From Gammaproteobacteria bacterium (GTDB taxonomy: Bacteria > Pseudomonadota > Gammaproteobacteria > SZUA-229): a DNA stretch of 64,000 nucleotides. Each line of letters opens with the position of its first letter. Within the stretch, counting starts at the first letter, position 1. Where the stretch lies: the NCBI GenBank assembly GCA_029881035.1, contig JAOUNI010000004.1:7924-71923 (forward strand). Reading direction: 5' to 3'. The notes under the pieces are model-generated. The model was not told the DNA's origin. It ran no database searches and saw only the letters and a program-made list of their open reading frames with translations. The position numbers were made by a program, and so were the translations under genes. Shown here piece after piece: positions 28,358-54,806 of this stretch.

Positions 28358-29722
28358 ATGACGGACAAAAAATTAAAGCCACTGATAGTGGTTGAAGATA
28401 ATCCAGGTATACAGAAGCAGCTTAAGTGGGCTTTTGAAGGCTATCAGGTATATATCGCGGGTGACAGGGCTTCAGCTGTGAAGTTGCTAAAGCAGCACAA
28501 GTCACCAGTGGTAACGTTAGATTTAGGATTGCCACCCGATCCGGCGAATGCCAGTGAGGGCCTGACTGCACTTGATGAAATTCTCAACATTGCACCACAT
28601 ACAAAAGTGATTGTAGTAACAGGCAATGATGATAGACAGAATGCTTTGAGGGCAATTGCACTGGGTGCGTATGATTTTTATCAAAAGCCTGTTGATCCTG
28701 AAATGCTTAGTTTGATAGTGGACCGGGCTTATAGATTGTATGAACTAGAAGAAGAAAACCGACAATTAGTTACGCAAGGTTCAGTTTCTGCATTGGATGG
28801 AATTATTGGTGCAAGTCAAAAAATGCTTGCTGCCTGTCGTATGGTAGAAAAAGTGGGGCCTTCAGAGGCTACTGCACTAGTGATCGGTGAAAGTGGCACA
28901 GGTAAAGAGTTGATTGCGAGAGCGCTACATCAGTTGAGTCCACGTGCCAAGGGCACATTTGTTGCTCTGAATTGTGCGGCCATTCCAGATAATCTACTCG
29001 AAAGTGAACTATTTGGTTACGAAAAAGGTGCTTTTACAGGCGCAGTGAAACAGACGCCTGGCAGGATTGAAGTGGCAAATGGAGGCACGATTTTTCTTGA
29101 TGAGATTGGTGATATGCCTATGCCGCTACAGGCTAAGATGCTGCGTTTTTTGCAGGAGCGTGTTATTGAACGTATTGGTGGTCGCGACACAATAGCAGTC
29201 GATGTGCGGATAATTTGTGCAACACATCGCAATTTAGGACAGTCAATAGAAGAGGGGTTATTTCGGGAAGATTTGTATTACCGCATTAGTGAAATTACAA
29301 TTGAAGCGCCACCATTGAGAGAACGTGAAAGCGATAAACTTTTGCTGGCACAAACTTTTCTGGACAAATTTAGCCAGAGTAGTGGCCGAAGTTTTCGCGG
29401 TTTTACGGATGGCGCAAGAGAGCAGATAGAAGCCTATGCGTGGCCCGGTAATGTGCGTGAACTGGAGAATAAAATAAAAAGAGCTGTAGTGTTGGCCGAG
29501 GGTAAAAGAATCTCTTCAGAGGATCTAGGTTTTGTTGAAAGAATTAAACCTTTGTCACTTGATCTTCGTGAGGCCAGAGAAGATGCTGAGCGTCAGGTTA
29601 TACAGCGTGCATTGGAGATACACGGAAATAATGTAACACACGCATCAGAATCCATGGGCATCAGTCGCCCATCTTTATATAAACTGGTTAAAAAATTAGG
29701 GATGCCGGAGCCGGGAAAATAG
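28358..29722 (+). CDS. prsR: PEP-CTERM-box response regulator PrsR (sigma-54-dependent, NtrC family)
   Basis: Receiver domain (phospho-accepting Asp in VVTLDLG), AAA+ sigma-54 domain ([24 protein letters not shown]), and a C-terminal Fis-type HTH. Confidence 0.85.
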   Translation: MTDKKLKPLIVVEDNPGIQKQLKWAFEGYQVYIAGDRASAVKLLKQHKSPVVTLDLGLPPDPANASEGLTALDEILNIAPHTKVIVVTGNDDRQNALRAIALGAYDFYQKPVDPEMLSLIVDRAYRLYELEEENRQLVTQGSVSALDGIIGASQKMLAACRMVEKVGPSEATALVIGESGTGKELIARALHQLSPRAKGTFVALNCAAIPDNLLESELFGYEKGAFTGAVKQTPGRIEVANGGTIFLDEIGDMPMPLQAKMLRFLQERVIERIGGRDTIAVDVRIICATHRNLGQSIEEGLFREDLYYRISEITIEAPPLRERESDKLLLAQTFLDKFSQSSGRSFRGFTDGAREQIEAYAWPGNVRELENKIKRAVVLAEGKRISSEDLGFVERIKPLSLDLREAREDAERQVIQRALEIHGNNVTHASESMGISRPSLYKLVKKLGMPEPGK

Positions 29723-31263
29723 TGATAAAAGAGCAAACAAAAAATACATGGAGGTTTGCTGGTCCGTTGATGCTAGTGATGTTAATGATAACGCTGGTGC
29801 TTTATCAACATACCGCCTTATATCTCATCAGTTTATGGAATCAACTTGATGCCGGAGAATACGCGCATGGATATCTGGTATTAGCAATCAGCATTTATTT
29901 AATATTTAACCATAAACAAGAATTATCTACGTTAACACCTCATCCCGAATATCGAGCTTTATTGGTGGTGTTTGGTGCAAGTATGTTGTGGATGGTGGCT
30001 GCATTGGTTAATGTGGAAATGTTGCAGGCGGTGGCATTTCTTATTCTGGTGTTGGCCATTGTTTGGTCAGTGTTAGGAAATCAAGTAATCCGGTTGTTAG
30101 CATTCCCAATTTTATTTATCGCATTTGCAATTCCTATATGGTTTCCATTGTCACCGACTCTGCAAAATATAACTGCCGATGTTGTGTTTGGTGCTATACG
30201 AGTGCTTAGTGTTCCGGCATTTCGTCAGGATAATATGATTATACTGCCAGCCGGAACATTATCGATCGAAGAGGCATGTAGCGGTTTACGTTACCTGCTG
30301 GCAGCACTGACGTTAGGCACACTTTATGCCTACATGAATTATTTCAGTTTACGTGCACGATTGGTTGTTGTGTTAGTGGCGGCGGGTTCAGCGGTGTTAG
30401 CCAATATGCTGCGAGTGTTTATCGTCGTTTATTTGGGTTATACGACAGAAATGCAACACCCACTGGTTGCTGACCACTTAAGTCTGGGCTGGTATTTGTT
30501 TGCTGGTCTTGTGACTATTTTATTATTTGTTGATTCACAGTTACATAAAAAATATTTGTTTATGGAATCAGATGAGCTGGTGATGCCTAATGACATAAAA
30601 AAAAATATAGATCGGAAAATATATCCATATTACATAGCGTATGCCGTTTTAACAGGTATGTTGATATGTGTTGCTCCTCTAGTTGTGTATCAGGCCAGTA
30701 CACCGTCTGTGAGCGAGGAAGAGAAATATGGACCAGTATTACCACAAGAGGCAGGGGTTTGGCTGTCAACATTAGATAATAGTGATAACTGGAGCCCTGT
30801 TTATCACGGCGCTATAAACCAGAAACAGATATATGAAATGAGTAATAACAAAGTCATATTGTATATGGGTTATTATCCAGTACAAAAACAAGGTGAAGAA
30901 CTGATCAACGATCTTAATCACATTAGCACTAAAGATGGGTGGCGTTCCGTTTATCCGAGGCCACTAATACAGCAAATAGAGGATAAATTGATACTTGAGC
31001 AGGTGCTGGATAATGGCGAGAAAGAACAGCGTTTAGTATGGTTTTGGTATAACGTTGCAGGAACAGTCACAACGAATAAGTATGAAGCGAAATTTTTACA
31101 GGTACTTGGTTTGTTGACTGGTAAAACCTGGGCTTACATAGCAGCTGTTGCTGTAGATAAGAATGATGATGTTGATATAAGCAGGCGGATCTTAAAAGAT
31201 TTTATAGGATCAATAGAAGAACCAATAAAAAGTGAGATTGAACGAATCACCGTCCATCACTAA
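29722..31263 (+). CDS. xrtA: Exosortase A (XrtA) fused to an EpsI-family C-terminal domain
   Basis: 8-TM N-terminal region carries the exosortase catalytic Cys (SIEEACSG), conserved Arg (ANMLRVF) and His. A ~200-aa soluble C-terminal extension (EpsI-like) follows. The GTG start overlaps the prsR TAG by 1 nt. Confidence 0.85.
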   Translation: MIKEQTKNTWRFAGPLMLVMLMITLVLYQHTALYLISLWNQLDAGEYAHGYLVLAISIYLIFNHKQELSTLTPHPEYRALLVVFGASMLWMVAALVNVEMLQAVAFLILVLAIVWSVLGNQVIRLLAFPILFIAFAIPIWFPLSPTLQNITADVVFGAIRVLSVPAFRQDNMIILPAGTLSIEEACSGLRYLLAALTLGTLYAYMNYFSLRARLVVVLVAAGSAVLANMLRVFIVVYLGYTTEMQHPLVADHLSLGWYLFAGLVTILLFVDSQLHKKYLFMESDELVMPNDIKKNIDRKIYPYYIAYAVLTGMLICVAPLVVYQASTPSVSEEEKYGPVLPQEAGVWLSTLDNSDNWSPVYHGAINQKQIYEMSNNKVILYMGYYPVQKQGEELINDLNHISTKDGWRSVYPRPLIQQIEDKLILEQVLDNGEKEQRLVWFWYNVAGTVTTNKYEAKFLQVLGLLTGKTWAYIAAVAVDKNDDVDISRRILKDFIGSIEEPIKSEIERITVHH

Positions 31264-31330: not shown

Positions 31331-34144
31331 ATGAATATCAAGATAAAAACACTGATCCGAATAAATAGAGTTCTTCTGATCGCAGTCACAATAGCACTTT
31401 TAGGTTGTTCCCCCGAGGTTAGCGATGAGCAGATGGTCCAGACGGCTAGAACATATATCGATAAAAATCAATTGCGTGAAGCAGCGTTGGAACTGAAAAA
31501 TGTGCTACAAAGGAATTCTGATAATGCAGAGGCGCGTTATCTTCTAGGTATTATTAATCTTGATATAGGCGATGCAGCCTCAGCGGAAAAAGAGTTTAGG
31601 CGTGCTGCTAGTGCTGGCTGGCAAGAAGGGCTTGCTCGTGTTGGTCAGGCCAGAGCGATGATTAATAGCAAGGCGTTTCAGAAACTGATCGATGAAATTG
31701 AAATCAAGAATGATTATCCCGCTAATATACGTGCTGACCTCTATGCTTTGCATGCACTGGCACAGGCAGGTCTTGGTAATATAGTTGAGTCCATAGAAAC
31801 ACTAAATAAAGCTTCTGAAATTGATGCAAATGCATTTCATGTTTTGAAGTCATCTATTCAAATATACCTGGCAAACAATGATATGGTGAGGGCTAAGGAT
31901 AGCTTAAAAATGGCATTAATAACATACGGAGAAAATCTGGAAATTTTGTTGCTGAGTGCGGCTATAGCTATAGAGGATAAGGATTATGTGGGAGCATCGG
32001 AAACCTACAAAAAGATCATTGAACAAGAGCCCGATAAATTGGTCACTATTTATGGAAGACGTGCCCGTTTGGCATTGGCGCGTTTTGAAATACTGAATAA
32101 AGAATTTGATAAAGCGAAACTGACATTACAACCGCTATTTAAGCAGAGTGAGGGTGATCCGGAAACCAATTTTGTTGGTGGCTTACTTGCGTTTGAGCAA
32201 GGGGATCTGAGTCTTGCTGAAGAGCGACTTCTTTCTGTTCTTAAAGTAGCTCCAAACCACGCACCAACGCAGTTGTTATTTGGTACGGTCAGTTATGCTC
32301 AGCAAGATTATGAACAAGCAGTTTATTATATTGCTAAATATGTCAGTGTTGCACCAGAAAATCTGGGTGCTCGTAAACTGTTGGGGCGTGCTTATATACA
32401 AATGGGCCAAAATAATGAAGCGCAGGCTGCATTACAGCCGGGCTTAAAAAATAGTAGTGAAGATGCAGAGTTATTGGCACTGGTTAGCTTTTCACAATTA
32501 CAGGGAGGTGATATAGCATCAGGAATTGCTGGTTTGGAGAAAGCCGTTAAAGTCGAACCAGAGAGCATTGTTTTAAGAAACGAGTTAGCCAGAGCTTATA
32601 TTTCTGCCGGTGAGACTGAAAATGCTATCAGGGAATTAAACACTATTCTTGTCAAAGATGGTGATAAACAACAGGCTGAAATTTTATTAATATCTGCACA
32701 TATAAAAGCAGAACATTATGACAAGGCCATTGATGTTGTGCTGGATATGCTTAAAAAAAGCCCTGATAACCCGGCAGTGCTTGCTCTGGCAGGTAATGTA
32801 TTTGTGGTGAGCAATGACAGGCCAGAGGCACGTAAATATTTTAATAAAGCATTGGAGATCAAACCGGACTATATGCCTGCGTCCATGTTGCTGGCAAGGC
32901 TGGAAGAAATTGAGGAGCATCCTGCTGAAGCTGAGTCGTTATATAAAAAACTAGCGGATAAGAATTTAGAAGATATCTCTCCTATGATGGCGCTTGCGCG
33001 TCTGGCAGAGACACAAAAGCAACCACAAAAAATGGTTGAGTGGTTGGAAAAGGCTCGTAAAACGGCACCTAATGAAATCAAACCACGTAAAATTTTGGCT
33101 GAATATTATTTACGAGAAAATCAATTGGACAAGGTCGCTCAGTTGATCACTGAAGCAATAAAGATTGCACCTCGTGATAATGCGCTGCTGCTTTTAGAAG
33201 CAAGATTGCAGATAGCCCAAGGCCAGAATAATAAAGCGTTGCCGATACTTAATGAGCTTGTTACCAAGGTCCCTGATTCAGTGTTAGCGCGTACCATGTT
33301 AGGTGAAACCTATCTCAAACTTGGCCAACTATCAGATGCCCGCAGACAAGTAAGCATTGTTTTAGAAAAACAGGCTTATTATGCACCAGCCCTGTTATTA
33401 ATGGCCGGAATTGAACTGCGAGCGGGCAACTATGATCAAGTGCTGAATTATGCGATGCAAGTTCAGAAAGTTTGGGTTGACTCATACATGGGTGCTGATG
33501 CATACATGGGGTATGAACTTGCTGGAGATGCTTATATACAAAAGAAAAACTATGCCAATGCCAAAGTTAATTATGAACAGGCATGGCAACGTAAACAGTC
33601 ATCCGAGTTAGCAATCAAACTTTCTGACGTATTAGTTCGTTCTGGCGAGTTTGACACGGCAACAAAACCCTTGCTTGCCTGGTTAAGCAGTCATCCTGAT
33701 GAGGTTCGCGTGCTCCAATTTTTGGGCTCAACGTATCAAAACATGAAACAGAATAAGGAAGCCATTAAAGCCTATGAGAAAGTGTTAACAATTCAGGTAG
33801 ACAACTTAGTCGCACTCAACAACCTCGCCTGGTTATATTCACTGGCAAATAATCCTAAATCACTTGAGTTGGCGGAAAGAGCGTACAACGCAAACTCCAG
33901 CGATGCCAGTATACAGGATACCTATGGTTGGGTATTAGTGCAGCAAGGCCAGACAGATAAGGGGCTTGGCTTATTAGAGCAGGTCATGAAATCTTTGCCG
34001 GGAGTGCCAGAAGTTCAGTATCACTACGCGGTCGCTTTGATGAAATCCGGGGAGGAAATCAAGGGCCGTCAAATACTCGGCAAGTTACTTAGCAGTGGCA
34101 AGTCATTTGAAGGCCGCGACTCAGCTGAGAAGATTATGAATTAG
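31331..34144 (+). CDS. prsT: PEP-CTERM system TPR-repeat lipoprotein PrsT
   Basis: 937 aa with lipobox LLGC. The whole length is composed of TPR repeats. Its position downstream of xrtA is typical. Confidence 0.85.
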   Translation: MNIKIKTLIRINRVLLIAVTIALLGCSPEVSDEQMVQTARTYIDKNQLREAALELKNVLQRNSDNAEARYLLGIINLDIGDAASAEKEFRRAASAGWQEGLARVGQARAMINSKAFQKLIDEIEIKNDYPANIRADLYALHALAQAGLGNIVESIETLNKASEIDANAFHVLKSSIQIYLANNDMVRAKDSLKMALITYGENLEILLLSAAIAIEDKDYVGASETYKKIIEQEPDKLVTIYGRRARLALARFEILNKEFDKAKLTLQPLFKQSEGDPETNFVGGLLAFEQGDLSLAEERLLSVLKVAPNHAPTQLLFGTVSYAQQDYEQAVYYIAKYVSVAPENLGARKLLGRAYIQMGQNNEAQAALQPGLKNSSEDAELLALVSFSQLQGGDIASGIAGLEKAVKVEPESIVLRNELARAYISAGETENAIRELNTILVKDGDKQQAEILLISAHIKAEHYDKAIDVVLDMLKKSPDNPAVLALAGNVFVVSNDRPEARKYFNKALEIKPDYMPASMLLARLEEIEEHPAEAESLYKKLADKNLEDISPMMALARLAETQKQPQKMVEWLEKARKTAPNEIKPRKILAEYYLRENQLDKVAQLITEAIKIAPRDNALLLLEARLQIAQGQNNKALPILNELVTKVPDSVLARTMLGETYLKLGQLSDARRQVSIVLEKQAYYAPALLLMAGIELRAGNYDQVLNYAMQVQKVWVDSYMGADAYMGYELAGDAYIQKKNYANAKVNYEQAWQRKQSSELAIKLSDVLVRSGEFDTATKPLLAWLSSHPDEVRVLQFLGSTYQNMKQNKEAIKAYEKVLTIQVDNLVALNNLAWLYSLANNPKSLELAERAYNANSSDASIQDTYGWVLVQQGQTDKGLGLLEQVMKSLPGVPEVQYHYAVALMKSGEEIKGRQILGKLLSSGKSFEGRDSAEKIMN

Positions 34145-37711: not shown

Positions 37712-38572
37712 ATGGTAATTCAGAATGCTTTGACCGTCGATGTTGAAGACTATTTTCACGTTTCTGCTTTTGCAAAAAGTATTAATCAGCAGGATTGGGA
37801 TAAATATCCTCTGCGAGTAGGAAATAATACACGCCGATTGCTGGATCTGTTTGACGAATACGAGGTAAAAGCTACCTTTTTTGTATTGGGCTGGGTCGCG
37901 GAACGCGCGCGTGATCTTGTTAAGGAGATCGCCAATAGAGGGCACGAGGTTGCTTGCCACGGTTACAGTCATCAGTTGGTCTACAATCAGAGCCCGGAAG
38001 TATTTCGCGAAGAAACATTTCGTTCAAAACATCTGCTCGAAGATATAGCTCAAACGCCGATACGTGGTTACCGTGCGGCGAGTTATTCAATTACCAGTCG
38101 TTCGCTTTGGGCATTGGATATTCTTGCTGAAGCCGGCTTTGACTACGATTCCAGTATTTTTCCAGTTAGACATGATCGATATGGTATTCCAGATGCACCA
38201 GAGTTTCCTTATCGCATGAAAACGCAAGATGGTCATTTGCTGGTAGAATTTCCACTCTCGACTGCAAAGTTGTTCCAGTACCGATTGCCTGTAGCAGGTG
38301 GCGGTTATTTTCGACTTTATCCTTATGCGATAACAAAGGCAGGTTTGTCGCAAATTAATCGAAGGCAGCAACCCTTTATATTTTATTTGCACCCCTGGGA
38401 GATTGATCCTGATCAGCCAAGAATATCAGCAAAATGGTTTTCCCGTTTTCGGCATTATAATAATCTTGGTAAATGCGAAGCGCGGTTACATCATCTTTTG
38501 TCAGATTTTAAATTTGGAACAAGTGAAAGTGTTTTAACATCACTTGGGCTGATAAATCGTATCGAACAATAA
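37712..38572 (+). CDS. XrtA-locus polysaccharide deacetylase (NodB homology domain)
   Basis: TVDVEDYFH ... HGYSH ... PWE motifs of the carbohydrate esterase family 4 / PEP-CTERM deacetylase subfamily. Confidence 0.85.
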   Translation: MVIQNALTVDVEDYFHVSAFAKSINQQDWDKYPLRVGNNTRRLLDLFDEYEVKATFFVLGWVAERARDLVKEIANRGHEVACHGYSHQLVYNQSPEVFREETFRSKHLLEDIAQTPIRGYRAASYSITSRSLWALDILAEAGFDYDSSIFPVRHDRYGIPDAPEFPYRMKTQDGHLLVEFPLSTAKLFQYRLPVAGGGYFRLYPYAITKAGLSQINRRQQPFIFYLHPWEIDPDQPRISAKWFSRFRHYNNLGKCEARLHHLLSDFKFGTSESVLTSLGLINRIEQ

Positions 38573-38592: not shown

Positions 38593-39723
38593 TTGCCCGA
38601 TTACCGTGCTGAATCCTGTACAATAAAAAACATAAGCGATTTAAAACAGGAATGGATCAATCTTCAGGAACGTGCGGATTGTTCTTACTTTCAGTCATGG
38701 GGCTGGGTAGGTACGTGGCTAGAGCACGTAGTAGATGATTTTGAGCCTACATTAATAAAAATATGGCACAACGACTTACTTGTGGGCATGGGCGTATTTG
38801 TGACCAAACAAGTGACACGCCGCGGCGTCATCCATTCTAACACCATGTTTCTCAATGAATATCCTTTTGATGGTCGAAATATGGCTATTGAATACAATGG
38901 TTTGTTGGTTGATAAAATGCACAGGCAAGCTGTTTACCAGCAGGCCATAGAGCATTTGCTTAGTACAAAGTACGATGTTGATGAGTTCTTTTTTAGTGGT
39001 TTATGTGAAGGCGAGGACGTAAAACTACTTAAGGATAGTCATGTTGATGACAAAATCTCTTTAAATGTTTTGGAGATATCATCCGCATGGTCAGTAGATC
39101 TGGACACTTTTGAGCCAGAGATCAGTGCCTTTCTGGAGACATTAAGTAAAAACAGAAGAGCTCAGATCCGGCGTTCAATGCAGCTTTATGAAAACCAGGG
39201 TGGCTTGCAGATTAATGAAGCACAAACAATGGATGATGCTTTGGTCTGGTTCGATGAATTAAAAAAGTTACATACAAATCACTGGGTGAACAAAGGTCAG
39301 CCGGGCTCATTTGCGAATCCGAGGTGGGAAGCCTTTCATAGGGCTTTGATACAAAATCGTTTTCATACTGGCGAAATACAGTTGTTGAAAGCGAGTAATG
39401 AAACGTTGGCAATTGGGTATCTGTATAATTTTGTCTGGCGAAAACGTGTCTATGTGTTACAGACGGGGTTTAGTGATTCATTAGACAAAAAATTAATGCC
39501 AGGCTATGTGACGCACGTGCTAGCTATTGTGTATAACAAAGTAAAAGGCATGTCTGTGTATGATTTGATGCACGGAGATTCGCTTTATAAAAGGTTGTTG
39601 TGTAACCAGAGCCACACACTTATCTGGATGGTATTACAAAGGCGGCAGCTAAGATTTGAGGTAGAAAAAGTGGCTGTTGATGTGATAAGAGGCTTCAGAA
39701 AAATGATCCGTTTCGGGCATTGA
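38593..39723 (+). CDS. FemAB-family (GNAT fold) protein, PEP-CTERM-system-associated
   Basis: 376 aa. The sequence resembles the FemAB-related family found in XrtA loci and is colinear with the C-terminal ~340 aa of ORF 45071..46504. Confidence 0.7.
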   Translation: MPDYRAESCTIKNISDLKQEWINLQERADCSYFQSWGWVGTWLEHVVDDFEPTLIKIWHNDLLVGMGVFVTKQVTRRGVIHSNTMFLNEYPFDGRNMAIEYNGLLVDKMHRQAVYQQAIEHLLSTKYDVDEFFFSGLCEGEDVKLLKDSHVDDKISLNVLEISSAWSVDLDTFEPEISAFLETLSKNRRAQIRRSMQLYENQGGLQINEAQTMDDALVWFDELKKLHTNHWVNKGQPGSFANPRWEAFHRALIQNRFHTGEIQLLKASNETLAIGYLYNFVWRKRVYVLQTGFSDSLDKKLMPGYVTHVLAIVYNKVKGMSVYDLMHGDSLYKRLLCNQSHTLIWMVLQRRQLRFEVEKVAVDVIRGFRKMIRFGH

Positions 39724-40966: not shown

Positions 40967-43765
40967 CTATAGCTGTATCAGTAATTTATTGGCCTCTTCT
41001 CTGCCTTGAAAAGGCACATTGTTCTCAAGAATTTTTTCCAGTATTTGCTTCGCTTTGTTTTTCTGGCCGGTTTCGACAAGCGCAACTGCAAAGTGATAGT
41101 TAACTTCGCGATTAGAAGATAACTTTGATGCTGCGGATTCCAGTACTACCAGAGCCGACTCTGCACGGCCAGCTTTTACCAGCAACCAGCCATAGGTATC
41201 CTGTATAGCCGGGTTATCAGGTGCAAGCTTATTGGCCTTGACCGCCATATCTAATGCTTCTGGTTTGCCTTTTAGGTAATACAGCCAGGCCAGATCATTG
41301 AGCACGACAGGATGGTCTGGCTGTTTTTTCAGTATTCTTTCGTATTCGGTCATGGCTTCATCTTGCAGGCCGTCTGCCAGTTGTGAGGACGCTAGGACAA
41401 AACGGGTCGAATGGTCATTAGGATTTTTCTCCAGCCAGTTGTGAAGAGCACTGTAGCCAGCGGCAGGCTGTTTTAGCGCCCTGTGCGCCCTGTTGATACG
41501 AACTACGATCTCGCTATTGTCAGAATCCTGCTCCGATGCCAAGAGATAAGCCGTAATCGCTTTGCTGGCATTATTTTGCGACATCAGTACATCGCCTTCG
41601 AGCAGATAGCCCGCGGCCTTTCCTGCTTGCGTTGTTTTTAGTTTTCGCACGATCAACATGGCTGCATCAAGATCACCGGTGGCTAGTTCTAGATTCCCCA
41701 AGGCCTGTCTAGCTTTGAGATGGTCAGGTTCCAGCTCGAGCGTTTTGTGAAGTGATTTTCGGGCGCCTGTAGCATCGCGGACTTTGGCTCTGACAAGAGC
41801 AAGGTAATAATGAGCATCAGGCAACGAAGGTGCAACATCAATAAGTTTTTTGATCGTTGCTTCGGCATCTGGGCTGCTAGAAGCGAACTGTGCTTTGATG
41901 AGTGCTATCAAGCCTCTGGGTAATTTTGGCGAGATTTTTTCGACTTCTTTTGCATAAGTCAGGGCTTCTTTTATTTTACCGATCCTAAGATAGTAATCTG
42001 ATAATGCTAGACGTGGATAGATCGCAGAAGCATCCGATTTTCTCGCTTTTTCTAGTAGCTCAATGGCCTCATTAACTTTACCTTCTTTATCCAGCAGGTA
42101 AGCTAGGGAGGTCAGCGCATCGGCTTGGTCAGGTTGCAATTTCAATACCTTCTCGTAGTGCTGGCGAGCTGAGACAGTATCGCCATCAACAACATCAAGA
42201 CTAGCGAGAGACAGTATTGATAATATGAAGTCAGGTTTGATATCCAGGGCATTTCGGAAACTGTTTCTTGCAGCACTGCGATTATTTTTACCTTTATAGG
42301 CCAGGCCTTCCATATGTGGTGGTAAAGGGCTGTCTGGTACTTGTACGGCAAGTTGTTTTGCCATTTCAATTGCTTTGTCAAATTCCGATGCGCGCAGATG
42401 AATCATAATAAGGTCAGTCGCCGCTTGGCCAGACTTGTCGCCCTTTTTTAGCGCGAGCTCAAGTAATTCGATGGCCTTGTCGGACTCGCCCATTGTTACA
42501 TAAGCCTTGACGAGCTCACTGCGAATACCGGCATTATCTGGGGAAGTATTAGCCGCATCTTTAAGATTTTTCAGTCCTGATACTTCGTCGCCACCTTTAA
42601 TCTTCGCTATGCCAAGCAATGTAAGCAATTCTGAGCTGTCATCTGTTCTGGATGCAGCAAACTCAAATCGTTCTTGCGCTTCATTATACTGTCCCATTGA
42701 CAGATAAATTTTACCCAGTGCCTGTTGAGCATCGAGGTTTCCGGGCCTGGCGGCAGTCGCCTTTTCCAGATAGTAGGCGGCCTGATTGTTGTTTTGCAGT
42801 AGGTAGTACAGGTTTGCTGATAATAGAAGGCCCCCATAGTGATTGGGTTCTTCTTTGAAGACTTTCAATAAATAATCTTTCGCAACATCATATTCTCCTT
42901 GTTTGAAAGCTATTATGCTCCTGTAATAATTAAGTTCTGGATCGAAACTAAAATGAATAAGTGCAGGGTTAAGTGCTTCCAAAGCTTTCTCTGTTTGATT
43001 TTGCATTAGGCGCACTTTACTTTGGCCCAGTCGTGCCAAACGTTCCCATCCGCTGACAATTTTTGGTGGATCGAGATCAATCACTTTCTGAAAGCAGTCG
43101 TCAGTGGTTGCAAAGTCCTTTTTGGTCAATGAGCGTTCGGCTTTCAATAGCCACAGATCCTGATTATCGGGATATAGCTCAATTGCATGATCGAGAATAT
43201 TATCGGCAGATTCTTCTTTGTCATGTTTTAGCTGTAGCCTGGTTCGGCTCTGCAACACCCACAGCGCATCTTTGTCGAAAGTTTCAGCTGTGATAGTGGT
43301 GCCCTCGGAGTCTTTCCATTTGCCTAGCGCCTGTTCTGCAGATGACCACAGCCCCAGTAGATTGGCCTTAACGCCGTTTGGGTAGTTGTCCTTGATAGGG
43401 ATATCATCAAGAACAGACCTGAATTCGCCTTGCCTGAATAATACTTCTGCAAGCATTAACTGGGTAGCCGCCTCGTCCCAGCCTGCTTCCAGCGCACGGC
43501 GGAAATTCTTTTCAGCGCCAGCAGCATCACCCATTTCAAGACTAATCTTGCCCAGAAGGAAGCGGGCCTCCGCATTCTGTGCATTTTTTACGAGCACATT
43601 TTTAAGTTCTATGCCGGCAGCATTCAGGTCACGTGACTGGTAATACTCCATGGCCTTGTCGATACCTTCCTGTTCACTCATGCCACCACAGGCAGCCAGA
43701 TGAGCTACAAACCAGGCAAGTAGCATATTTCTAGTAAGAATTGTGACTGTGTTTATAATTGACAT
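40967..43765 (-). CDS. Second PrsT-like TPR-repeat lipoprotein (paralog). The probable start is 43765; the ORF track's TTG start is at 43813.
   Basis: ~930 aa of TPR repeats. Lipobox LAACG follows the internal Met. GGAG lies 8 nt upstream of the ATG at 43763-43765. Confidence 0.75.
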   Translation of the reverse strand: MSIINTVTILTRNMLLAWFVAHLAACGGMSEQEGIDKAMEYYQSRDLNAAGIELKNVLVKNAQNAEARFLLGKISLEMGDAAGAEKNFRRALEAGWDEAATQLMLAEVLFRQGEFRSVLDDIPIKDNYPNGVKANLLGLWSSAEQALGKWKDSEGTTITAETFDKDALWVLQSRTRLQLKHDKEESADNILDHAIELYPDNQDLWLLKAERSLTKKDFATTDDCFQKVIDLDPPKIVSGWERLARLGQSKVRLMQNQTEKALEALNPALIHFSFDPELNYYRSIIAFKQGEYDVAKDYLLKVFKEEPNHYGGLLLSANLYYLLQNNNQAAYYLEKATAARPGNLDAQQALGKIYLSMGQYNEAQERFEFAASRTDDSSELLTLLGIAKIKGGDEVSGLKNLKDAANTSPDNAGIRSELVKAYVTMGESDKAIELLELALKKGDKSGQAATDLIMIHLRASEFDKAIEMAKQLAVQVPDSPLPPHMEGLAYKGKNNRSAARNSFRNALDIKPDFILSILSLASLDVVDGDTVSARQHYEKVLKLQPDQADALTSLAYLLDKEGKVNEAIELLEKARKSDASAIYPRLALSDYYLRIGKIKEALTYAKEVEKISPKLPRGLIALIKAQFASSSPDAEATIKKLIDVAPSLPDAHYYLALVRAKVRDATGARKSLHKTLELEPDHLKARQALGNLELATGDLDAAMLIVRKLKTTQAGKAAGYLLEGDVLMSQNNASKAITAYLLASEQDSDNSEIVVRINRAHRALKQPAAGYSALHNWLEKNPNDHSTRFVLASSQLADGLQDEAMTEYERILKKQPDHPVVLNDLAWLYYLKGKPEALDMAVKANKLAPDNPAIQDTYGWLLVKAGRAESALVVLESAASKLSSNREVNYHFAVALVETGQKNKAKQILEKILENNVPFQGREEANKLLIQL

Positions 43766-44005
43766 ATTTAACTCCATAAAAAATGCGTCTTGAATCATTT
43801 CTAAAAAATTCAATGTTAAAAAGTGGTGCTGATTTATCTAACGATTATTTGTAAGGGAACCCTGTATAGTCTTTAAAATGCCATCTCCCAAAGATATCCT
43901 AATCGATTAGATGAACTCCTATAACCCTGCAACATACCATAACTTATAGCAGCAGGCCCTATTTTATCGTGAGTTTAACTACCTAATGTTCAGTGCGCAC
44001 TTGTC

Positions 44006-45037
44006 TTAAATCTGACTGTGACTAAATAAATAATTGTGATTGGCTCGTTCAATCCAACTGCAATACTGAATAAAGTCAGTCATATTATCAGGTAGTTCAA
44101 AACGTGGTAGACAGTAAAGCAATGCTGCAGAATTATTATCTACAGAACCGGGGAGTGTAGCTACCGCGCCAATAAAGCTTTCTTTTTTAAGAATATTTAT
44201 TTCCCTTGGACCAAAATCCAGAACCCTGCCAGTAGGATAACAAAATACCTTAAGTGGGTTTGATAGTTCGCTTTCTAGAATCTTCCATGAGCCGATGATT
44301 TCTTCTTCTGCTGATTTTTTGTTTAGCTTTGAGAGGATGCGATGCGTCATTGAATGTGGCGCGAACCTGATTCCCTTGCTTTCAAGTTCACGCGCCATTT
44401 CCCAATTCAAAGATTTATAAGGGTTGGGTGCGGTTATAGGAAGTTGGACGTCAGCGGCATCAGCAAGGTTATTTATTATCTCTGGAATAGATTCTGAGTT
44501 CATTTCTTTAATGACATTTCGGATTTCTTCTCGAGCATTACGGCGGTTATTTTTATTTCCGAGTATCATGTTTAGTATTTCATCTTCAAACTTTAAAACA
44601 ACATGATTTTTATTTGTATTGTCGATAATCCATGATACTTGAGCATCCCAGGGCCATAGAATCTGATCAAGTAGACCTGTAATGATAAAAAAAGTTAAAG
44701 GACAGTTAAATTCAAGGAAGATAGGTGCGGCTATCTCTGCTTGTTCTAAAAAACCATCATCCATGGTGAATGACACCGATTTTTTTGGTAGAGTTATCTG
44801 ATTGTTTAGTGATCCGATAATGTCTTCAAGCGATACAAATGTGTAGTCTTTATCTTTTAAATATCTCAGGCAGCGACGAAGGTGATCTGGTGAAATGCCA
44901 CTATTAGACTGGCCTTCCACTTTTATGCGGTGGATCATAAATATAGGAATACCGTGACCGAGAAATGAAGTTGCAATCGCAGAAACAGGAGCGCTTGCTA
45001 ATAGGGGAACGAATAGTTTTTTTAGAAGTTTTTTCAT
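44006..45037 (-). CDS. Polysaccharide deacetylase family protein (NodB domain)
   Basis: Signal peptide is present, with the FTMDDG catalytic motif 1 and H-containing motifs downstream. Confidence 0.7.
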   Translation of the reverse strand: MKKLLKKLFVPLLASAPVSAIATSFLGHGIPIFMIHRIKVEGQSNSGISPDHLRRCLRYLKDKDYTFVSLEDIIGSLNNQITLPKKSVSFTMDDGFLEQAEIAAPIFLEFNCPLTFFIITGLLDQILWPWDAQVSWIIDNTNKNHVVLKFEDEILNMILGNKNNRRNAREEIRNVIKEMNSESIPEIINNLADAADVQLPITAPNPYKSLNWEMARELESKGIRFAPHSMTHRILSKLNKKSAEEEIIGSWKILESELSNPLKVFCYPTGRVLDFGPREINILKKESFIGAVATLPGSVDNNSAALLYCLPRFELPDNMTDFIQYCSWIERANHNYLFSHSQI

Positions 45038-45070: not shown

Positions 45071-46504
45071 TCAAGGAATATTTTTTACTATGAATGGCCC
45101 TAACCATTGAGCAAGTTTTACAGGTAATCTTTTCCATATATTAACAATGAGCGCATATTTAGGGTTTGATGGATTGAGCGATGGGAGTTGGTTTGTATTG
45201 CCAAGCCAATAGTGCCAATATAGTTGCTTTGGTTGAGCGCCCCATTGTCTTTTAAATAGATAAGTGCCTGTATTTTTACTTGAGCGGCCAAAATCAAAAT
45301 GATTGTAGCCTTGGTTAACGGTAAATTTCAAAACTTCCCAGTATAGTAGCATATTCATACTGTGCTGATTATAGTCGCGAATAGTAGATGCGAGCGGGAT
45401 TTCCATTCCGTTGCCATGACAAAGTAACAAGCCAGCTGATACAGGTTTGTTGTTGAGGCGTATAACTATAATGTGGCTGTTATCTGGAAAACTAGTAAGA
45501 ATATTTTCAATGAGTTGTTTGCTGTGTGCAGGAGAACCAAGGTCGCGCATATTACGGGAATAAACTTTGTAAAAGTCATCCAGGTATTTTTTTCCGCCAA
45601 TAAGTACTTTCGGTGTTAGTTGTTGCGGCCGTTTTATCTGCGCACGTAGTTTTGCAGTGAAGCTGGCCCAGAGCGCCTCTTCAGAATTGGGTAACGCTAG
45701 GATCATATTAACTTTGTGAGATTGTACTGGGAGGCCATCCCGTGGAATATCGTCGCGGTACTCGGTATGATCGATACCTAGACGAGCCGCTTCTTCATTG
45801 GCGGCTTTCATAAGCTTATGTTCAATCAGCGGGTGGTCTGCAATGGCACCGCCACGTTGAAAGAAAGGCATAGAAACTAATATGTCACCAAATAGTCGGC
45901 TCTTGAGTCGAACCATTGGCAGAACACCCACGATTTCCTTATTTTTGTCACAGGCGAATAAATAATGACTGTCAATGGAGTACGTTTTGCGAAGTATATC
46001 TCGCCAATGAGTTAGGTGATGAATGCTGGCTGCGGGCTGTTTTGAAACGTAATCATTCCACGCGTTTTCTTCATTATCAAGCAGGCAGATGGTGATCGTG
46101 TCTAGATCAACTTCAGAAATAGTATGCCTGCTGCTTGATGATGTTATCACTGGTTTCGTTATAGACTGGTCTTTGTTATTACCAATAATAAAAAAATCTA
46201 GAATTTGATTTTCAATAATCCCTATTTTTACTTCCAGTTGCTTACGCTCAGAACTTTGCTGTTTCATGGCGTGCATCAGTTCATTTGTTGGGAGGTTGAT
46301 TTTTTTGGCCTCACCAATTTTCCGAGATATGATTTTCGTTTGAATTTGTATCTCTAGAGTTTGTTTTTTTAATAACTGCAGCTGATTCCATAGTTCGCCG
46401 AGTTTTAATCTTTCATCTGATCCAGTATCTGGATATTGTGAAGAAAATAATGCAACAGGGTTTAATAAAATCTGGTTCTTTAGTTTGGCCTGATTTTGAC
46501 TCAT
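45071..46504 (-). CDS. FemAB-family protein with an N-terminal coiled-coil extension resembling the seryl-tRNA synthetase tRNA-binding arm
   Basis: The C-terminal ~340 aa are colinear with the FemAB-related ORF 38593..39723. In the N-terminal ~130 aa, KLGELWNQLQLLKKQTLEIQIQTKIISRKIGEAK lines up residue-for-residue (same 34-aa spacing) with E. coli SerRS [34 protein letters not shown]. Confidence 0.7.
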   Translation of the reverse strand: MSQNQAKLKNQILLNPVALFSSQYPDTGSDERLKLGELWNQLQLLKKQTLEIQIQTKIISRKIGEAKKINLPTNELMHAMKQQSSERKQLEVKIGIIENQILDFFIIGNNKDQSITKPVITSSSSRHTISEVDLDTITICLLDNEENAWNDYVSKQPAASIHHLTHWRDILRKTYSIDSHYLFACDKNKEIVGVLPMVRLKSRLFGDILVSMPFFQRGGAIADHPLIEHKLMKAANEEAARLGIDHTEYRDDIPRDGLPVQSHKVNMILALPNSEEALWASFTAKLRAQIKRPQQLTPKVLIGGKKYLDDFYKVYSRNMRDLGSPAHSKQLIENILTSFPDNSHIIVIRLNNKPVSAGLLLCHGNGMEIPLASTIRDYNQHSMNMLLYWEVLKFTVNQGYNHFDFGRSSKNTGTYLFKRQWGAQPKQLYWHYWLGNTNQLPSLNPSNPKYALIVNIWKRLPVKLAQWLGPFIVKNIP

Positions 46505-46512
46505 GCGTTAAC

Positions 46513-47550
46513 CTACATCCATCCTGAAATACGTGCGAGAAAAGATATTCTGTCATTAGCGATGTCTTCATGAATTCCAATACGGCGCAATAGGTTGGTA
46601 TTAGTTGTTATAGAATTCCAACCGGTTTCAGTTGAAACGCTACCTTCATACTGTTGTTGTACTAGCTCTAATGCTTTGGAAGAGTAATCTCCATTTGGGA
46701 AGCAAAAAGTTTTTACAGAAAATCCTGTTTTATTTTCAATATGTTGTTTGCTGGCGATAATTTCATATTCAAGCACATTGTTATTAGTCTCATTATTGAG
46801 ACGGATATGGTTGCAGGTGTGGCTGCCAGCTTCAACCAGCCCGGAATCATTCATTTCAGAGAGTTGTTGCCAATTAAGCAATGAAGGCTCGTTATTGTAT
46901 TTATGTAATTTTAATGCGTCTTCGATTTTATCAAGGCGCATGTGAATCTCGTGGTCGGGTAATGTTTTTGTGTTGGCAATTAGTTCGCTAAGCTCTTCCT
47001 GAGTCGGTGCTACAGTAGTGAACTGATAGCTTACAGAAGGGCTTTTTATCCATTCTAGTGATGGGTGCGACCAGTGGCCTGGATGATCTATTGCGATGGA
47101 TGTAATTATAAGTGCAAGGCGTTCTGGCCAGAAACGTTTGTTGGTGTCGATCATGTCAGAGACCAGAAAGATCGTAGCGGGCACCTCAAGCTCGCGTAAT
47201 ATCGGAAAAGCAAATTCATAGTTGTCTGCCCAGCCATCGTCGAAGGTAATTGCACAAGCAAGGGAGGGAAGTTTGTCGCCGTTGTTTTTTTTAGTTATCC
47301 AGTCAGAGAGCTTAACAATTTCAAAATATTCTTTAAGTATATTGAGATGTAATCTGAAAGACTCAGGTGAAACAATCATGCCTGGTTCTTCAGAAAGTGC
47401 ACGCTGGTCGTCGATGGGCAGAATCCGATGATACATCAGTATTAGAAATTGAGGTTCATCAGTCGTTCTTGTGTGTCTGCCAAACGAGGCTGCAAGGTGC
47501 TGCAGAGTGCGCTTGATGATGTATTTAACAGGGTTGGAACGGAGTGTCAT
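46513..47550 (-). CDS. Polysaccharide deacetylase family protein (NodB domain)
   Basis: ITFDDGW motif 1, followed by typical downstream His motifs. Confidence 0.7.
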
Positions 47551-51953: not shown

Positions 51954-53540
51954 ATGTTGTTTAATTCCTATAGTTTCATTTTTCTTTTTTTACCTATAAC
52001 ATTGTCCGTTTTTTTTCTTACGGCCAGAATAGGTCGGGAGGCGGCGATAACCTGGTTGGTACTGGCCTCGTTATTTTTTTATGGCTGGTGGAATTCGATA
52101 TATCTAATATTGATCATGATATCAATGTTCGTTAATTTTTACATTGGCAATGTAATAAGTTCGAATTACAAAGAAAATAAAATCAAAAAATCAAAAATAT
52201 ATTTATTGTTGGGGTTATTTTTTAATCTTGGTATATTGGCCTATTATAAATATGCAGGATTTATTGTTTATAACATAAATGCCTTTTCGGCGGATCAGAT
52301 TAGTATAACTGAAATAGTATTGCCCCTGGCTATCTCATTTTTTACTTTTCAGCAGGTTGCATATCTAGTTGATGCTTCACGGGGAATTGCGCAAGAATAC
52401 CGATTTTCACATTATGCTTTATTTGTGACTTTTTTCCCGCAGTTGATCGCTGGGCCGATCGTTCATCATAAAGAAATGTTGCCGCAATTCATGCAGAGTG
52501 AAACCCTAAAACCACAGTTCGAAAATATAGCTATTGGATTGACGATATTTTTTATTGGTTTGTGTAAAAAAGTTGTTTTTGCAGATGGTGCTGCTCAGTA
52601 TTCGAGCCCGATATTTGAAGCTGCGAGTACAGGGTCGACGCTAACATTTTTAGAAGCCTGGGGTGGTGTTTTAGCATATACCATGCAATTATATTTTGAT
52701 TTTTCTGGTTATTCTGATATGGCCATAGGGGCGGCTAGACTATTTGGTATCCGTTTACCTCTTAATTTTTTCTCACCCTATAAGTCTACTAGTATTATTG
52801 AGTTTTGGAGACGCTGGCATATAACATTGTCACGGTTTTTGCGAGATTATTTATACTTCTCCATGGGAGGAAATCGTCGAGGTAAATTGCGTCGGTATGT
52901 TAATTTATTTACTACCATGTTGCTAGGTGGCTTGTGGCACGGAGCTGGTTGGACGTTTGTAGTATGGGGTGCATTACATGGTTTCTATTTAGTTGTTAAC
53001 CATGCATGGCATCGTTTTCGTGATGTATCGGGTGTGAGTGGAAGCCGGTGCCCTAAAATAAGTAAGTTTGTAGCATGGTTGGTAACGTTTTTATCAGTAG
53101 TGATTGGCTGGGTGTTTTTCCGTGCCAGTGATTTTGATAGTGCTATTGCTATTTTAAAGGGCATGGCAGGCATTAATGGACTTGCAATACCAAACGGAAT
53201 TTTGGCGAGACTGGGTGAGGCTGGAGTGTGGTTGCAAGGAATTGGTGTGGGTACAAGTCTTGGTGGGGGTTCAACTCTGATATTGACCTATCTTTGGATC
53301 ATGGTACTTTTGTTTGTGACATTAGTGCTACCTAATACTCAACAGATTATGTCAAAGTTTTCTCCTGTGTTATCTGAATATAAGTCTGACCCTATTTATT
53401 CAATTAGCATAGGAAGAAACTTTGAAATGATACTATTATGGCGACCAACCGTTATGTGGTCAATGATAATTGCGATGATAGCAACATTAGGTGTTCTTGC
53501 ACTTACCAGCGTATCTGAATTTTTATATTTTCAATTCTAA
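51954..53540 (+). CDS. MBOAT-family membrane-bound O-acyltransferase (AlgI/DltB-like)
   Basis: Multi-TM protein. The conserved His lies in the WHGAGW..VWGALHG region characteristic of MBOAT. Confidence 0.8.
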   Translation: MLFNSYSFIFLFLPITLSVFFLTARIGREAAITWLVLASLFFYGWWNSIYLILIMISMFVNFYIGNVISSNYKENKIKKSKIYLLLGLFFNLGILAYYKYAGFIVYNINAFSADQISITEIVLPLAISFFTFQQVAYLVDASRGIAQEYRFSHYALFVTFFPQLIAGPIVHHKEMLPQFMQSETLKPQFENIAIGLTIFFIGLCKKVVFADGAAQYSSPIFEAASTGSTLTFLEAWGGVLAYTMQLYFDFSGYSDMAIGAARLFGIRLPLNFFSPYKSTSIIEFWRRWHITLSRFLRDYLYFSMGGNRRGKLRRYVNLFTTMLLGGLWHGAGWTFVVWGALHGFYLVVNHAWHRFRDVSGVSGSRCPKISKFVAWLVTFLSVVIGWVFFRASDFDSAIAILKGMAGINGLAIPNGILARLGEAGVWLQGIGVGTSLGGGSTLILTYLWIMVLLFVTLVLPNTQQIMSKFSPVLSEYKSDPIYSISIGRNFEMILLWRPTVMWSMIIAMIATLGVLALTSVSEFLYFQF

Positions 53541-54806
53541 ATGACAACAAAAAAAAATAATTTTAGGAAGTATGTTGTTGTAATGGCATTTATATTTTTG
53601 ATATTTCTTGGTATTTCGGTGGTTATTAATTATTTAGTTGACCCATATGGATTGTTTGATTCAAAAAGAGTTAATGGCTTTAATCAGCTTAAGCCAAAAG
53701 CAACACGACACGTTCGTGTAACTAAACCATATCTTGTAGATGTATTTAATCCACGATCAATAATTGCTGGCAATTCGCGTCCTGAAATAGGCCTAGATCC
53801 AGAAAATAGTTGCTGGCCAGAAAGTTATCGGCCAGTTTTTAATTTGAGCGTGCCAGGTTCAAGTGTGTATATGGCTGCTCGTTATATTCAACATGCTATT
53901 GCTGGAAATGAAATAAAACAAGTTTTTTGGGGGTTAGATTTTAATGATTTTTTAAATGATGTGGCAAGAAATGAAAGCGTGGTGACCTGGCCGCCTGTTG
54001 AAGAAACATTTGAGGAACGGTTAAGGGTTAGGGCCGATGGTAGTAATAATGATATATATTACTGGAGTAAAATTAAAGATCAGTTAACTTTTTTATTTTC
54101 ACTTGATGCACTTGCGGATAGTTTTAATACAATAGTCCGACAATCAAACGAGCGCACACCAACAATCCGGCGTGATGGTTATAATCCAGCTAAAGACTTT
54201 CTGGATATTATTGCATTGGAAGGTCAAGGTTTGATTTTTAGGCAGACCAATATAAATACATCAGCAATGTTCAATAAGCCCGAGCGTACATTATTCACAA
54301 ATAATAATACTTCGCTGCAGTTTGAAAGTGTACGACAACTATTAAAATTTTCTCAAAAAAATAATGTAAATGTAGTGTTATTTATTAATCCATATCATTC
54401 AGATTATTTGGAGACTATTGAAATAGCGGGACTTTGGGAACATTTTTTATTATGGAAGAAACAGCTAACGTATTTGGCAGCGGAATTTGCTGTGCCCTTA
54501 TGGGATTTTAGTAGCTATAATGAACTAACTAATATTCAGCCACCTGTGATTGGTGATAATAAAAGCATATTGCGCTGGTTTTGGGAGCCGGCCCATTACC
54601 GTAAGGAGTATGGTGATTTGATATTGAGCCAGATGCTGAATGGTGCATGTGACAATAGCGATGTAATGCTCTCGGGGCAATTGCTTAAACCGGAAAAACT
54701 GGATGACTATATTATTAAATTAAATGAAGGTTTAAATTACTATAAGGATATACACGCAGAAGCAATAGAGCGTCTTCTCAACATAGTCCAGTTAAGAAAT
54801 AATTAA
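53541..54806 (+). CDS. Periplasmic partner of the MBOAT (AlgJ/AlgX/DltD-like, N-terminally anchored)
   Basis: It starts immediately after the MBOAT stop and has a single N-terminal TM anchor and a large periplasmic domain. The call rests on gene context and architecture, since no strong motif was recognised. Confidence 0.45.
   Translation: MTTKKNNFRKYVVVMAFIFLIFLGISVVINYLVDPYGLFDSKRVNGFNQLKPKATRHVRVTKPYLVDVFNPRSIIAGNSRPEIGLDPENSCWPESYRPVFNLSVPGSSVYMAARYIQHAIAGNEIKQVFWGLDFNDFLNDVARNESVVTWPPVEETFEERLRVRADGSNNDIYYWSKIKDQLTFLFSLDALADSFNTIVRQSNERTPTIRRDGYNPAKDFLDIIALEGQGLIFRQTNINTSAMFNKPERTLFTNNNTSLQFESVRQLLKFSQKNNVNVVLFINPYHSDYLETIEIAGLWEHFLLWKKQLTYLAAEFAVPLWDFSSYNELTNIQPPVIGDNKSILRWFWEPAHYRKEYGDLILSQMLNGACDNSDVMLSGQLLKPEKLDDYIIKLNEGLNYYKDIHAEAIERLLNIVQLRNN

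Follow-up and report, generated by a model that had tools for sequence, protein, structure and literature searches.

The 64,000-nucleotide stretch of DNA analysed here (the window; contig JAOUNI010000004.1, from a gammaproteobacterium of the SZUA-229 lineage) carries a complete exosortase A (XrtA)/PEP-CTERM exopolysaccharide (EPS) system, comprising PrsK, PrsR, an XrtA-EpsI fusion, two PrsT proteins, PEP-CTERM proteins, a TIGR03007 chain-length determinant, a TIGR03018 tyrosine kinase and a TIGR03006 deacetylase. The subject of this report is a minus-strand gene in the locus whose product, by profile comparison, joins the N-terminal tRNA-binding domain of seryl-tRNA synthetase (SerRS) to a Fem-type transferase of family TIGR03019. 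The open reading frame (ORF) exists as an earlier note on this DNA had described it, and a database entry from a Gammaproteobacteria metagenome-assembled genome (MAG), labelled ‘FemAB family PEP-CTERM system-associated protein’, is 100 % identical to its product. Hereafter, the SerRS-type domain is called the arm and the gene arm-Fem. The parts of the gene are as follows.

45071..46504, minus strand: arm-Fem fusion gene, 477 amino acids (aa), consisting of a SerRS-type N-terminal domain, a linker and a TIGR03019 Fem domain
46184..46504, minus strand: SerRS-type N-terminal tRNA-binding domain, residues 1-107 (Pfam, family profile, hhalign, AlphaFold2)
46304..46327, minus strand: SRKIGEAK motif, residues 60-67, with which helix 1 ends close to the tip of the hairpin; the arm's best-conserved part, common with SerRS (S-K-x-I-G-x-x-K)
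46100..46183, minus strand: flexible linker, residues 108-135, of low complexity, little conservation and variable length
45074..46063, minus strand: Fem-type double-GNAT catalytic domain, residues 148-477 (TIGR03019, Pfam, Foldseek)
45251..45256, minus strand: F417-K418, counterpart of the essential F304-K305 of Weissella FemX (profile alignment)

The arm and its relationship to SerRS

On profile evidence, the arm (residues ~8-107) is a true homologue of the SerRS N-terminal tRNA-binding domain, and at the level of the family this is beyond doubt. The correspondence between the KLGEL...SRKIGEAK core and Escherichia coli SerRS that the earlier note had pointed out is real and ungapped, the family profile aligning residues 31-102 with E. 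coli SerRS 26-97 and residues 31-101 with Klebsiella SerRS 26-96. For the window protein by itself the signal is weak: against Pfam Seryl_tRNA_N (PF02403; cut-off 28.2 bits) the whole protein scores 17.8 bits and the isolated arm 21.1 bits (E 4e-3 to 4e-4), in register, with residues 35-104 on model positions 31-100. Searched as a single sequence against the PDB with phmmer, the window arm found no match at E<=10; the homology is one that is visible to profiles only. In a diverse set of 59 orthologous arms, all but one (58) have a Seryl_tRNA_N match at E<=0.01 (best E 3e-13), other coiled-coil families being matched by at most five of the 59 each, and the orthologue from a Verrucomicrobiaceae MAG reaches 31.1 bits, which is the best individual score and above the cut-off. 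The 120 best homologues are mostly ~477 aa long, and many carry a precomputed PF02403 match. When the arm profile was run against the PDB (hmmsearch), seven SerRS chains were returned in one common register (E 6.9e-8 to 8.4e-5), followed by a 72-residue coiled-coil protein (8.7e-4), an eighth SerRS (1.8e-3) and the remaining coiled coils at 0.04 or worse. Against 1.84 billion (1.84e9) representative proteins, the Fem arms are followed in the ranking by true N-termini of SerRS proteins (MLDxK...PNxP), from E 5.9e-10, and all 64 of these that were aligned are Seryl_tRNA_N by Pfam. Comparison of the two profiles with hhalign gives 98.9 % probability (E 2.5e-17) over 103 ungapped columns (arm 8-110 on SerRS 3-105), a span that, as aligned, covers the whole SerRS N-domain and extends beyond the hairpin alone. 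The SerRS set was selected among arm-profile matches, a choice on which the Pfam and PDB results do not depend.

A register test, together with the specific nature of the matches in Pfam and the PDB, rules out a generic coiled-coil artefact. In ungapped register against 64 SerRS N-domains, the window sequence has a mean BLOSUM62 score of +30.7, which none of 5000 shuffles reaches (z=6.7). Because registers shifted by whole heptads score -6 to -18, as against +49 for the true register, the resemblance is no mere coiled-coil periodicity. Separately, six stretches of an unrelated 896-aa protein (P0163), whose N-terminus resembles a STAND/NACHT-type NTPase, match the arm profile (E 2e-9); this match is probably to a repetitive coiled coil and not to a SerRS-type domain.

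In the AlphaFold2 model, two short helices (residues 3-14 and 16-23) precede an antiparallel hairpin made of helix 29-68, a turn at 69-73 and helix 74-106, with both hairpin helices at a predicted local distance difference test (pLDDT) score of >90. When the arm model was searched with Foldseek, SerRS gave the top matches. The description of the first ~130 residues as a coiled coil holds for the long hairpin at 29-106 and not for residues 1-130 throughout, which include the short helices and a disordered linker. The linker has a pLDDT of 27-54 in both AlphaFold2 models (<50, disordered, at residues 108-124) and shows no consensus in orthologue alignments.

What has been kept of the SerRS domain, and what has been replaced, bears directly on which tRNA might be bound. 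Arm and SerRS have in common the hydrophobic core, the tip motif S60-x-x-I63-G64-x-x-K67 and the positions M80/M75, K88/K83 and E98/E93. Across orthologues, I63 and G64 are invariant and S60, R61, A66 and K67 are conserved at >=85-90 %, the SerRS counterparts being S55 (95 %), I58 (92 %), G59 (75 %) and K62 (100 %); the SerRS-specific residues D3, R8, R21, R37/R38, E45, R51 and N52 are not kept in Fem arms. In SerRS, the N-domain binds the variable arm of the tRNA along with its D and T loops. The human contact residues R44, R47, D51, N54, N58, S61 and R9, which we take to correspond to arm positions 43, 46, 50, 53, 57, 60 and 13, are represented in Fem arms by Q, K, K (Leu in the window protein), Q, K, S and L. 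The mapping follows the common N-x-x-S-x-x-I-G spacing, and the human sequence used for it reproduces all of the residue numbers in the report on human SerRS-tRNASec (PMC4666401), where these residues are the helix-1 contacts plus R9, N58 is invariant and the D51A mutant is inactive. Among these human tRNA contacts, only that of S61 (S60 in the arm) has been kept. The positions that read the variable arm (human R9, R44, D51 and N58; bacterial R8, R37/R38, E45 and N52) are replaced in Fem arms, and therefore SerRS homology does not imply Ser-tRNA; the suggestion in the earlier note that the donor might be Ser-tRNA or a different tRNA whose variable arm is long does not follow from it. Helix 1 does retain a conserved polar and basic stripe, K46-K50-Q53-K57-S60-G64-K67, which is the b/e stripe carrying the human contacts R47, D51, N54, N58 and S61, and the fact that the same face stays conserved, polar and basic argues that RNA binding has been retained by the arm.

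Catalytic domain and the surrounding EPS locus

Assignment of the remainder of the protein to the FemAB family, as originally proposed, is confirmed by TIGR03019 (NCBIfam), which matches residues 148-477 over model positions 2-330 of 330 with 345.2 bits against a cut-off of 260.35. Since the full model is accounted for by these residues alone, the first ~147 residues are, judging from the extent of the match, an addition to the usual architecture of the family. Within the catalytic part, Pfam recognizes Acetyltransf_6 and FemAB (37.5 bits; cut-off 24), and what follows the arm is linker and Fem domain, with no tRNA-synt_2b match, i.e. no class II synthetase core. The AlphaFold2 model, made from 112 orthologues (mean pLDDT 89), consists of two tandem GNAT domains in a Fem fold. 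When this domain was compared with the PDB by Foldseek, the best 26 matches were all aminoacyl-tRNA-dependent transferases, including Weissella FemX (E 2e-16; template-modelling score to target 0.70-0.73), Staphylococcus aureus FemX, FemA, MprF/aaPGS and Sba18/Sbb17, with coenzyme A (CoA)-dependent tandem GNATs ranking lower (E 1e-9 to 1e-8). The family profile likewise matched FemX among PDB sequences, at E 3e-8, and the profile alignment pairs FemX ‘YVFKH’ (302-306) with the family's ‘YRFKQ’ (415-419). F417 and K418 are unchanged across the 112 orthologues; in FemX, F304 and K305 are essential, and K305 is the sole reactive residue at the transfer site (PMC4964394; PMC12945691).

The neighbouring genes that matter most for the interpretation are listed below.

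46513..47550, minus strand: upstream PgaB/NodB-type polysaccharide deacetylase (NCBIfam deacetyl_PgaB N-domain E 4e-25; Pfam Polysacc_deac_1)
44006..45037, minus strand: downstream second polysaccharide-deacetylase-family protein (NCBIfam PgaB-like E 2e-11; Pfam Polysacc_deac_1)
37712..38572, plus strand: canonical XrtA-system polysaccharide deacetylase (TIGR03006, 411 bits), the usual upstream partner of TIGR03019 Fem genes
29722..31263, plus strand: exosortase A fused to an EpsI domain, 513 aa, which defines the locus type (TIGR03109 238.7 bits against 208; EpsI E 6e-17)
22917..24338, plus strand: XrtA-system priming polyprenyl glycosylphosphotransferase (TIGR03013, 543.7 bits)
21431..22720, plus strand: TviB-type UDP-GlcNAc C-6 dehydrogenase (NF011729, 623 bits against an equivalog cut-off of 592)

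The ATG of arm-Fem lies 8 nt past the stop of the upstream deacetylase gene and its own end is separated from the downstream deacetylase-family gene by 33 nt; given these gaps, the three genes form a single operon, which a second PrsT gene (40967..43813, minus strand) closes. The two full-length copies of PrsT, the XrtA-system tetratricopeptide-repeat protein, lie at 31331..34144 (plus strand) and 40967..43813 and score 625 and 667 bits, respectively. By eye only, the N-terminus of the 44006..45037 protein (MKKLLKKLFVPLLASAPVSAIA...) resembles a signal peptide or membrane anchor, and neither the 46513..47550 deacetylase nor the TIGR03006 deacetylase has a signal peptide, a distribution that suggests deacetylation on both sides of the membrane. 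Presence of the priming glycosylphosphotransferase gene implies that lipid-linked repeat units are made at the cytoplasmic face, and the TviB-type dehydrogenase, scoring above its cut-off, suggests that the EPS contains a 2-acetamido hexuronic acid, which would be a candidate substrate for deacetylation and aminoacylation. The exosortase also has 210 bits to the full-length XrtW model, which is under the cut-off of that model.

Across genomes, the usual gene order is chain-length determinant, kinase, TIGR03006 deacetylase and Fem, whether or not the Fem protein has an arm (e.g. Marinobacter algicola, L028), and the Marinobacter and Granulosicoccus loci are of the XrtA type as well. In the clade to which the window belongs, arm-Fem is instead found, in conserved order, between two other deacetylase genes, and a PF13480 protein occupies the slot after TIGR03006. 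In the window that protein is 38593..39723 (plus strand), a 376-aa Acetyltransf_6 protein of no NCBIfam family whose homologues occur together with arm-Fem genes in the loci L001-L003, L005, L007, L010, L017, L019, L021, L051 and L058. The earlier note had regarded it as a paralogue of arm-Fem lacking the arm. The arm is indeed absent, but with a BLASTP E of 0.26 and only the PF13480 superfamily in common, it is no paralogue in any meaningful sense. Possibly it transfers a further acyl or aminoacyl group to the same sugar. Also present in the window are GT4 glycosyltransferases, an ATP-grasp enzyme, an O-antigen-ligase-like protein and a DltB-like MBOAT. The gene for the ATP-grasp enzyme (carbamoyl-phosphate-synthase-like/PRK06849; 48770..49942, minus strand) is kept close to the GT4-deacetylase-Fem block in many loci, with the arm as well as without it, and ligases of such a type, which form amides, could add or extend an amino-acid decoration.

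Distribution of the arm

A locus scan with one genome per species yielded at least 600 loci, of which the best 80 were analysed. By arm hidden Markov model, the arm is present in ~38 of these, and Pfam adds one further locus (L040); Pfam also confirms the arm in M. algicola DG893, a Hydrogenophaga MAG, Allohahella marinimesophila and the Verrucomicrobiaceae MAG. Cultured carriers are M. algicola DG893, Marinobacter lipolyticus, Marinobacter maroccanus and A. marinimesophila. Armless proteins of 343-360 aa occur in Nitrospirota, Desulfobacterota/Geobacter, Woeseiaceae, Steroidobacteraceae, Pleionea and others, and the idea that the arm is universal in Fem proteins of XrtA loci is rejected, about half of the best 80 loci being armless. 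The long N-terminal extensions of the ORFs in L027, L042, L045 and L059 do not contain the arm and are probably due to start codons called too far upstream.

In a rough neighbour-joining tree of catalytic domains, built without support values, the arm-bearers form essentially one large clade, made up of the window group, Thiotrichaceae, Granulosicoccaceae, Marinobacter, Oleiphilus, Spongiibacteraceae and two Burkholderiales MAGs, with a small armless subclade nested beside it. This topology fits a single capture of the arm followed by occasional loss. Within TIGR03019, the arm is the mark of a single large clade of gammaproteobacteria, for the most part marine. Compared with armless TIGR03019 proteins (~343-360 aa; Geobacter, Nitrospira and Woeseiaceae loci), which are like the window protein in having the full catalytic domain, the same locus type and the usual deacetylase neighbour, proteins of the window clade have ~135 extra N-terminal residues (SerRS-type domain and linker) that fall outside the family model, and their gene has moved from the TIGR03006 slot into the deacetylase-Fem-deacetylase operon.

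Three of the analysed loci depart from the common layout. In the Verrucomicrobiaceae MAG (L013; 7485..9392), the Seryl_tRNA_N match lies at residues 171-268 and the ORF begins ~165 residues farther upstream, either because there is an additional domain or because the start was called too early. No other arm-bearing locus among the best 80 is from outside Proteobacteria, which suggests lateral transfer. In the other two, arm and Fem domain are on separate, adjacent or overlapping ORFs (L009, 7851..8378 and 8308..9285; L046, 7923..8441 and 8457..9236), a split that could be due to a frameshift, an assembly error or a real split gene with the arm acting in trans.

Proposed function and competing explanations

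Several known enzymes provide a frame for interpreting the fusion. As compared with SerRS, with which it has the hairpin, hydrophobic core and tip motif in common, ungapped over the whole domain, the Fem arm is tied by a disordered linker to a transferase and not to a class II synthetase core; the SerRS arm acts across the dimer. S. aureus FemA (PDB 1LRZ), which the catalytic domain matches in structure at E 1.3e-12, is a Fem enzyme of the double-GNAT type; its arm of two antiparallel helices has been proposed in a review, by structural comparison with SerRS, to be a tRNA-binding site. The FemA arm, however, is an insertion (residues 246-307) in GNAT domain 2, whereas the arm described here is N-terminal, tethered and homologous in sequence to SerRS, and at the FemA insertion site the AlphaFold2 model has short helices only (275-281, 284-294, 305-321 and 329-338). 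The parallel with FemA that the earlier note drew needs correcting in this respect, the two arms being of different topology and analogous only; the acceptor also differs, being a peptidoglycan precursor for FemA and probably an EPS precursor for arm-Fem. Weissella viridescens FemX (PDB 1NE9/4II9), which the catalytic domain matches best in both structure and sequence, with the F304-K305 pair kept, has no helical arm and uses UDP-MurNAc-pentapeptide as acceptor and Ala-tRNA as donor. The acceptor of Orf11 is the amino group of the amino sugar of streptothrisamine, which the enzyme converts to glycylthricin using Gly-tRNA. Orf11, Sba18 and Sbb17 (streptothricin-type amide synthases; PDB 9WQY/9WQX, with streptothrisamine bound in the solved Sba18/Sbb17 structures), of which Orf11 is the one characterized, are Fem-like GNATs that depend on aminoacyl-tRNA, as the enzyme proposed here would. 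By analogy, Orf11/Sba18 is the nearest precedent for the proposed chemistry, i.e. tRNA-dependent acylation of an amino sugar, but these enzymes act on a small molecule, are ~285 aa long and armless, come from actinomycetes and are unconnected with polysaccharide or exosortase loci.

Taking this together with the locus, we propose, with a probability of roughly 0.6, that arm-Fem is a cytoplasmic Fem-family aminoacyl transferase of the XrtA/PEP-CTERM EPS system whose ancestor captured a whole proteobacterial SerRS N-terminal tRNA-binding domain, and which N-aminoacylates a de-N-acetylated amino sugar on an EPS precursor. The analysis itself shows the domain homologies, the predicted fold, the conserved catalytic pair and the gene context; that the arm binds tRNA, that the enzyme depends on it and what the acceptor would be are what we infer here. 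Aminoacyl-tRNA is confined to the cytoplasm and the arm-Fem protein has no signal sequence, so that the acceptor would be an intermediate in that compartment. An amino sugar that has lost its N-acetyl group is suggested by the conserved pairing with NodB/PgaB-type deacetylases, of which at least two, judged by eye, lack a signal peptide, and a nucleotide- or undecaprenyl-linked precursor is suggested by the priming transferase and hexosaminuronic-acid gene. Of the acceptors named in the earlier note, a sugar amine, with aminoacyl-tRNA as donor, stays the best reading; a PEP-CTERM protein or mature EPS is unlikely, aminoacyl-tRNA being found in the cytoplasm only.

In the mechanism we envisage, neighbouring NodB/PgaB-type deacetylases would strip the N-acetyl group from an amino sugar of the nucleotide- or undecaprenyl-diphosphate-linked repeat unit. 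The arm, on its ~28-residue flexible linker, would clamp the elbow of an aminoacyl-tRNA with the face of helix 1 that SerRS uses, the linker letting the aminoacylated CCA end reach K418, about one tRNA arm-length away, in the C-terminal GNAT domain. There, the F417-K418 pair would aid attack by the sugar amine, and the product, an N-aminoacyl amino sugar, would then be polymerized and exported as part of its repeat unit.

A number of observations weigh against this proposal. Roughly half of the closest family members (best 80 loci) have no arm, nor does Weissella FemX, and because these work without one, the arm is an accessory and not needed for catalysis. The counterparts of SerRS residues D51, N58, R44 and R9, essential for tRNA recognition, have been replaced, with Leu at position 50 in the window protein, and the SerRS binding mode cannot simply have been inherited by the arm. 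The window arm itself scores below the Pfam gathering score of 28.2, and the best Pfam match of the catalytic part is to a generic GNAT model, Acetyltransf_6. No dedicated tRNA gene was found within the 64-kb window or at 37 arm-bearing loci, and a literature search found no experimental report on any TIGR03019 member.

The most serious competitor retains tRNA dependence and makes arm-Fem a seryl transferase that produces N-seryl amino sugars. We regard this as possible but doubtful. The homology does span the whole SerRS N-domain, which is known to recognize the long variable arm, S60, whose human counterpart S61 touches U20, is conserved at 98 %, the stripe on helix 1 has kept its polar and basic character, and some orthologues are labelled ‘serine/alanine adding enzyme’ by one source, which is an automatic label only. 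Yet the counterparts of D51, N58, R44 and R9 have become K/L, K, Q and L, and the comparable arm of FemA has been proposed, by comparison with SerRS, as a site for glycyl-tRNA. Moreover, the choice of amino acid by Fem enzymes is set largely by the catalytic pocket and the acceptor stem. Data on FemX that bear on this choice are available (PMC2175331).

The two remaining explanations give up tRNA for the arm or for the enzyme as a whole. Armless Weissella FemX illustrates that a Fem domain can bind aminoacyl-tRNA alone, and the SerRS-derived hairpin might have been reused without tRNA, for dimerization or for docking to a protein of the EPS machinery or to SerRS. This we consider unlikely, as the best-conserved residues (K46, K50, Q53, K57, S60, R61 and K67) are solvent-facing, polar or basic and on the RNA face of SerRS with no new hydrophobic interface, as a flexible tether suits substrate capture, and as a tRNA-binding domain is unlikely to have arrived on a tRNA-dependent enzyme fold by coincidence. 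That the enzyme is instead an acyl-CoA-dependent GNAT, which re-acylates the deacetylated sugar with a non-acetyl group and uses no tRNA, is very improbable. The top Pfam match (Acetyltransf_6), the presence of CoA-dependent tandem GNATs among the structural matches (E 1e-9 to 1e-8) and the adjacent deacetylases are compatible with such an acyl-swap pathway, but each of the best 26 structural matches depends on aminoacyl-tRNA, the F-K pair peculiar to Fem enzymes never varies, the family profile matches FemX in the PDB (E 3e-8) and a homologous tRNA-binding domain is fused on.

Fem-type transferases are known from Gram-positive cell walls and a few antibiotic pathways, and to our knowledge, a Fem role in the widespread XrtA/PEP-CTERM EPS systems of environmental Gram-negative bacteria has the status of an annotation guess only. 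The literature on Fem/PEP-CTERM proteins, exosortases and XrtA yielded nothing on an arm-Fem fusion or on tRNA-dependent EPS modification, Haft 2006 makes no mention of tRNA and, in the passages available to us, none of Fem proteins, and a 2026 review of aminoacyl-tRNA-dependent enzymes includes no polysaccharide case. With no paper found on it, the reaction does appear to be undescribed for XrtA systems, as the earlier note supposed. What is already known is the association of Fem with XrtA loci, through annotation, and the fusion architecture is visible in databases via precomputed Pfam matches. In the papers searched, the FemA arm is linked to SerRS by structural comparison only, so that no Fem arm before this one may have had its homology to SerRS demonstrated in sequence. 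Although the arm is an accessory domain on an enzyme already suspected of tRNA dependence, the capture by descent of a synthetase's tRNA-binding domain argues strongly, at the level of sequence, that EPS Fem enzymes use charged tRNA, which should surprise specialists in aminoacyl-tRNA transferases and exosortases and is directly testable in cultured Marinobacter. If the proposal of EPS-precursor aminoacylation is confirmed, polysaccharide decoration would become one more use of aminoacyl-tRNA outside the ribosome, the conserved pairing of deacetylase and Fem genes would have a rationale and a route would be opened to the chemistry of exosortase attachment.

On that last point, Fem enzymes build the Gly5 bridge that is attacked by sortase A. 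A speculative and rather improbable extension is that an amino acid added by Fem to a de-N-acetylated EPS sugar supplies the alpha-amine nucleophile for XrtA, thereby linking cleaved PEP-CTERM proteins covalently to the polysaccharide. If so, deacetylase, Fem and XrtA would be a Gram-negative counterpart of the FemXAB/sortase pair, and the Fem gene's being a signature component of XrtA loci would be explained.

Two further features of the window stand apart from arm-Fem. The DltB-like MBOAT gene (51954..53540, plus strand), with 179 bits to the DltB model, which is under cut-off, is followed by an ORF for 421 aa with no family match (53541..54806, plus strand), and the two are possibly an O-acylation module of the EPS. 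A second sigma-54-dependent activator (7740..9059, minus strand), ~20 kb from PrsR and with no receiver-domain match, resembles PrsR in its ATPase and DNA-binding part only (302 bits, under cut-off).

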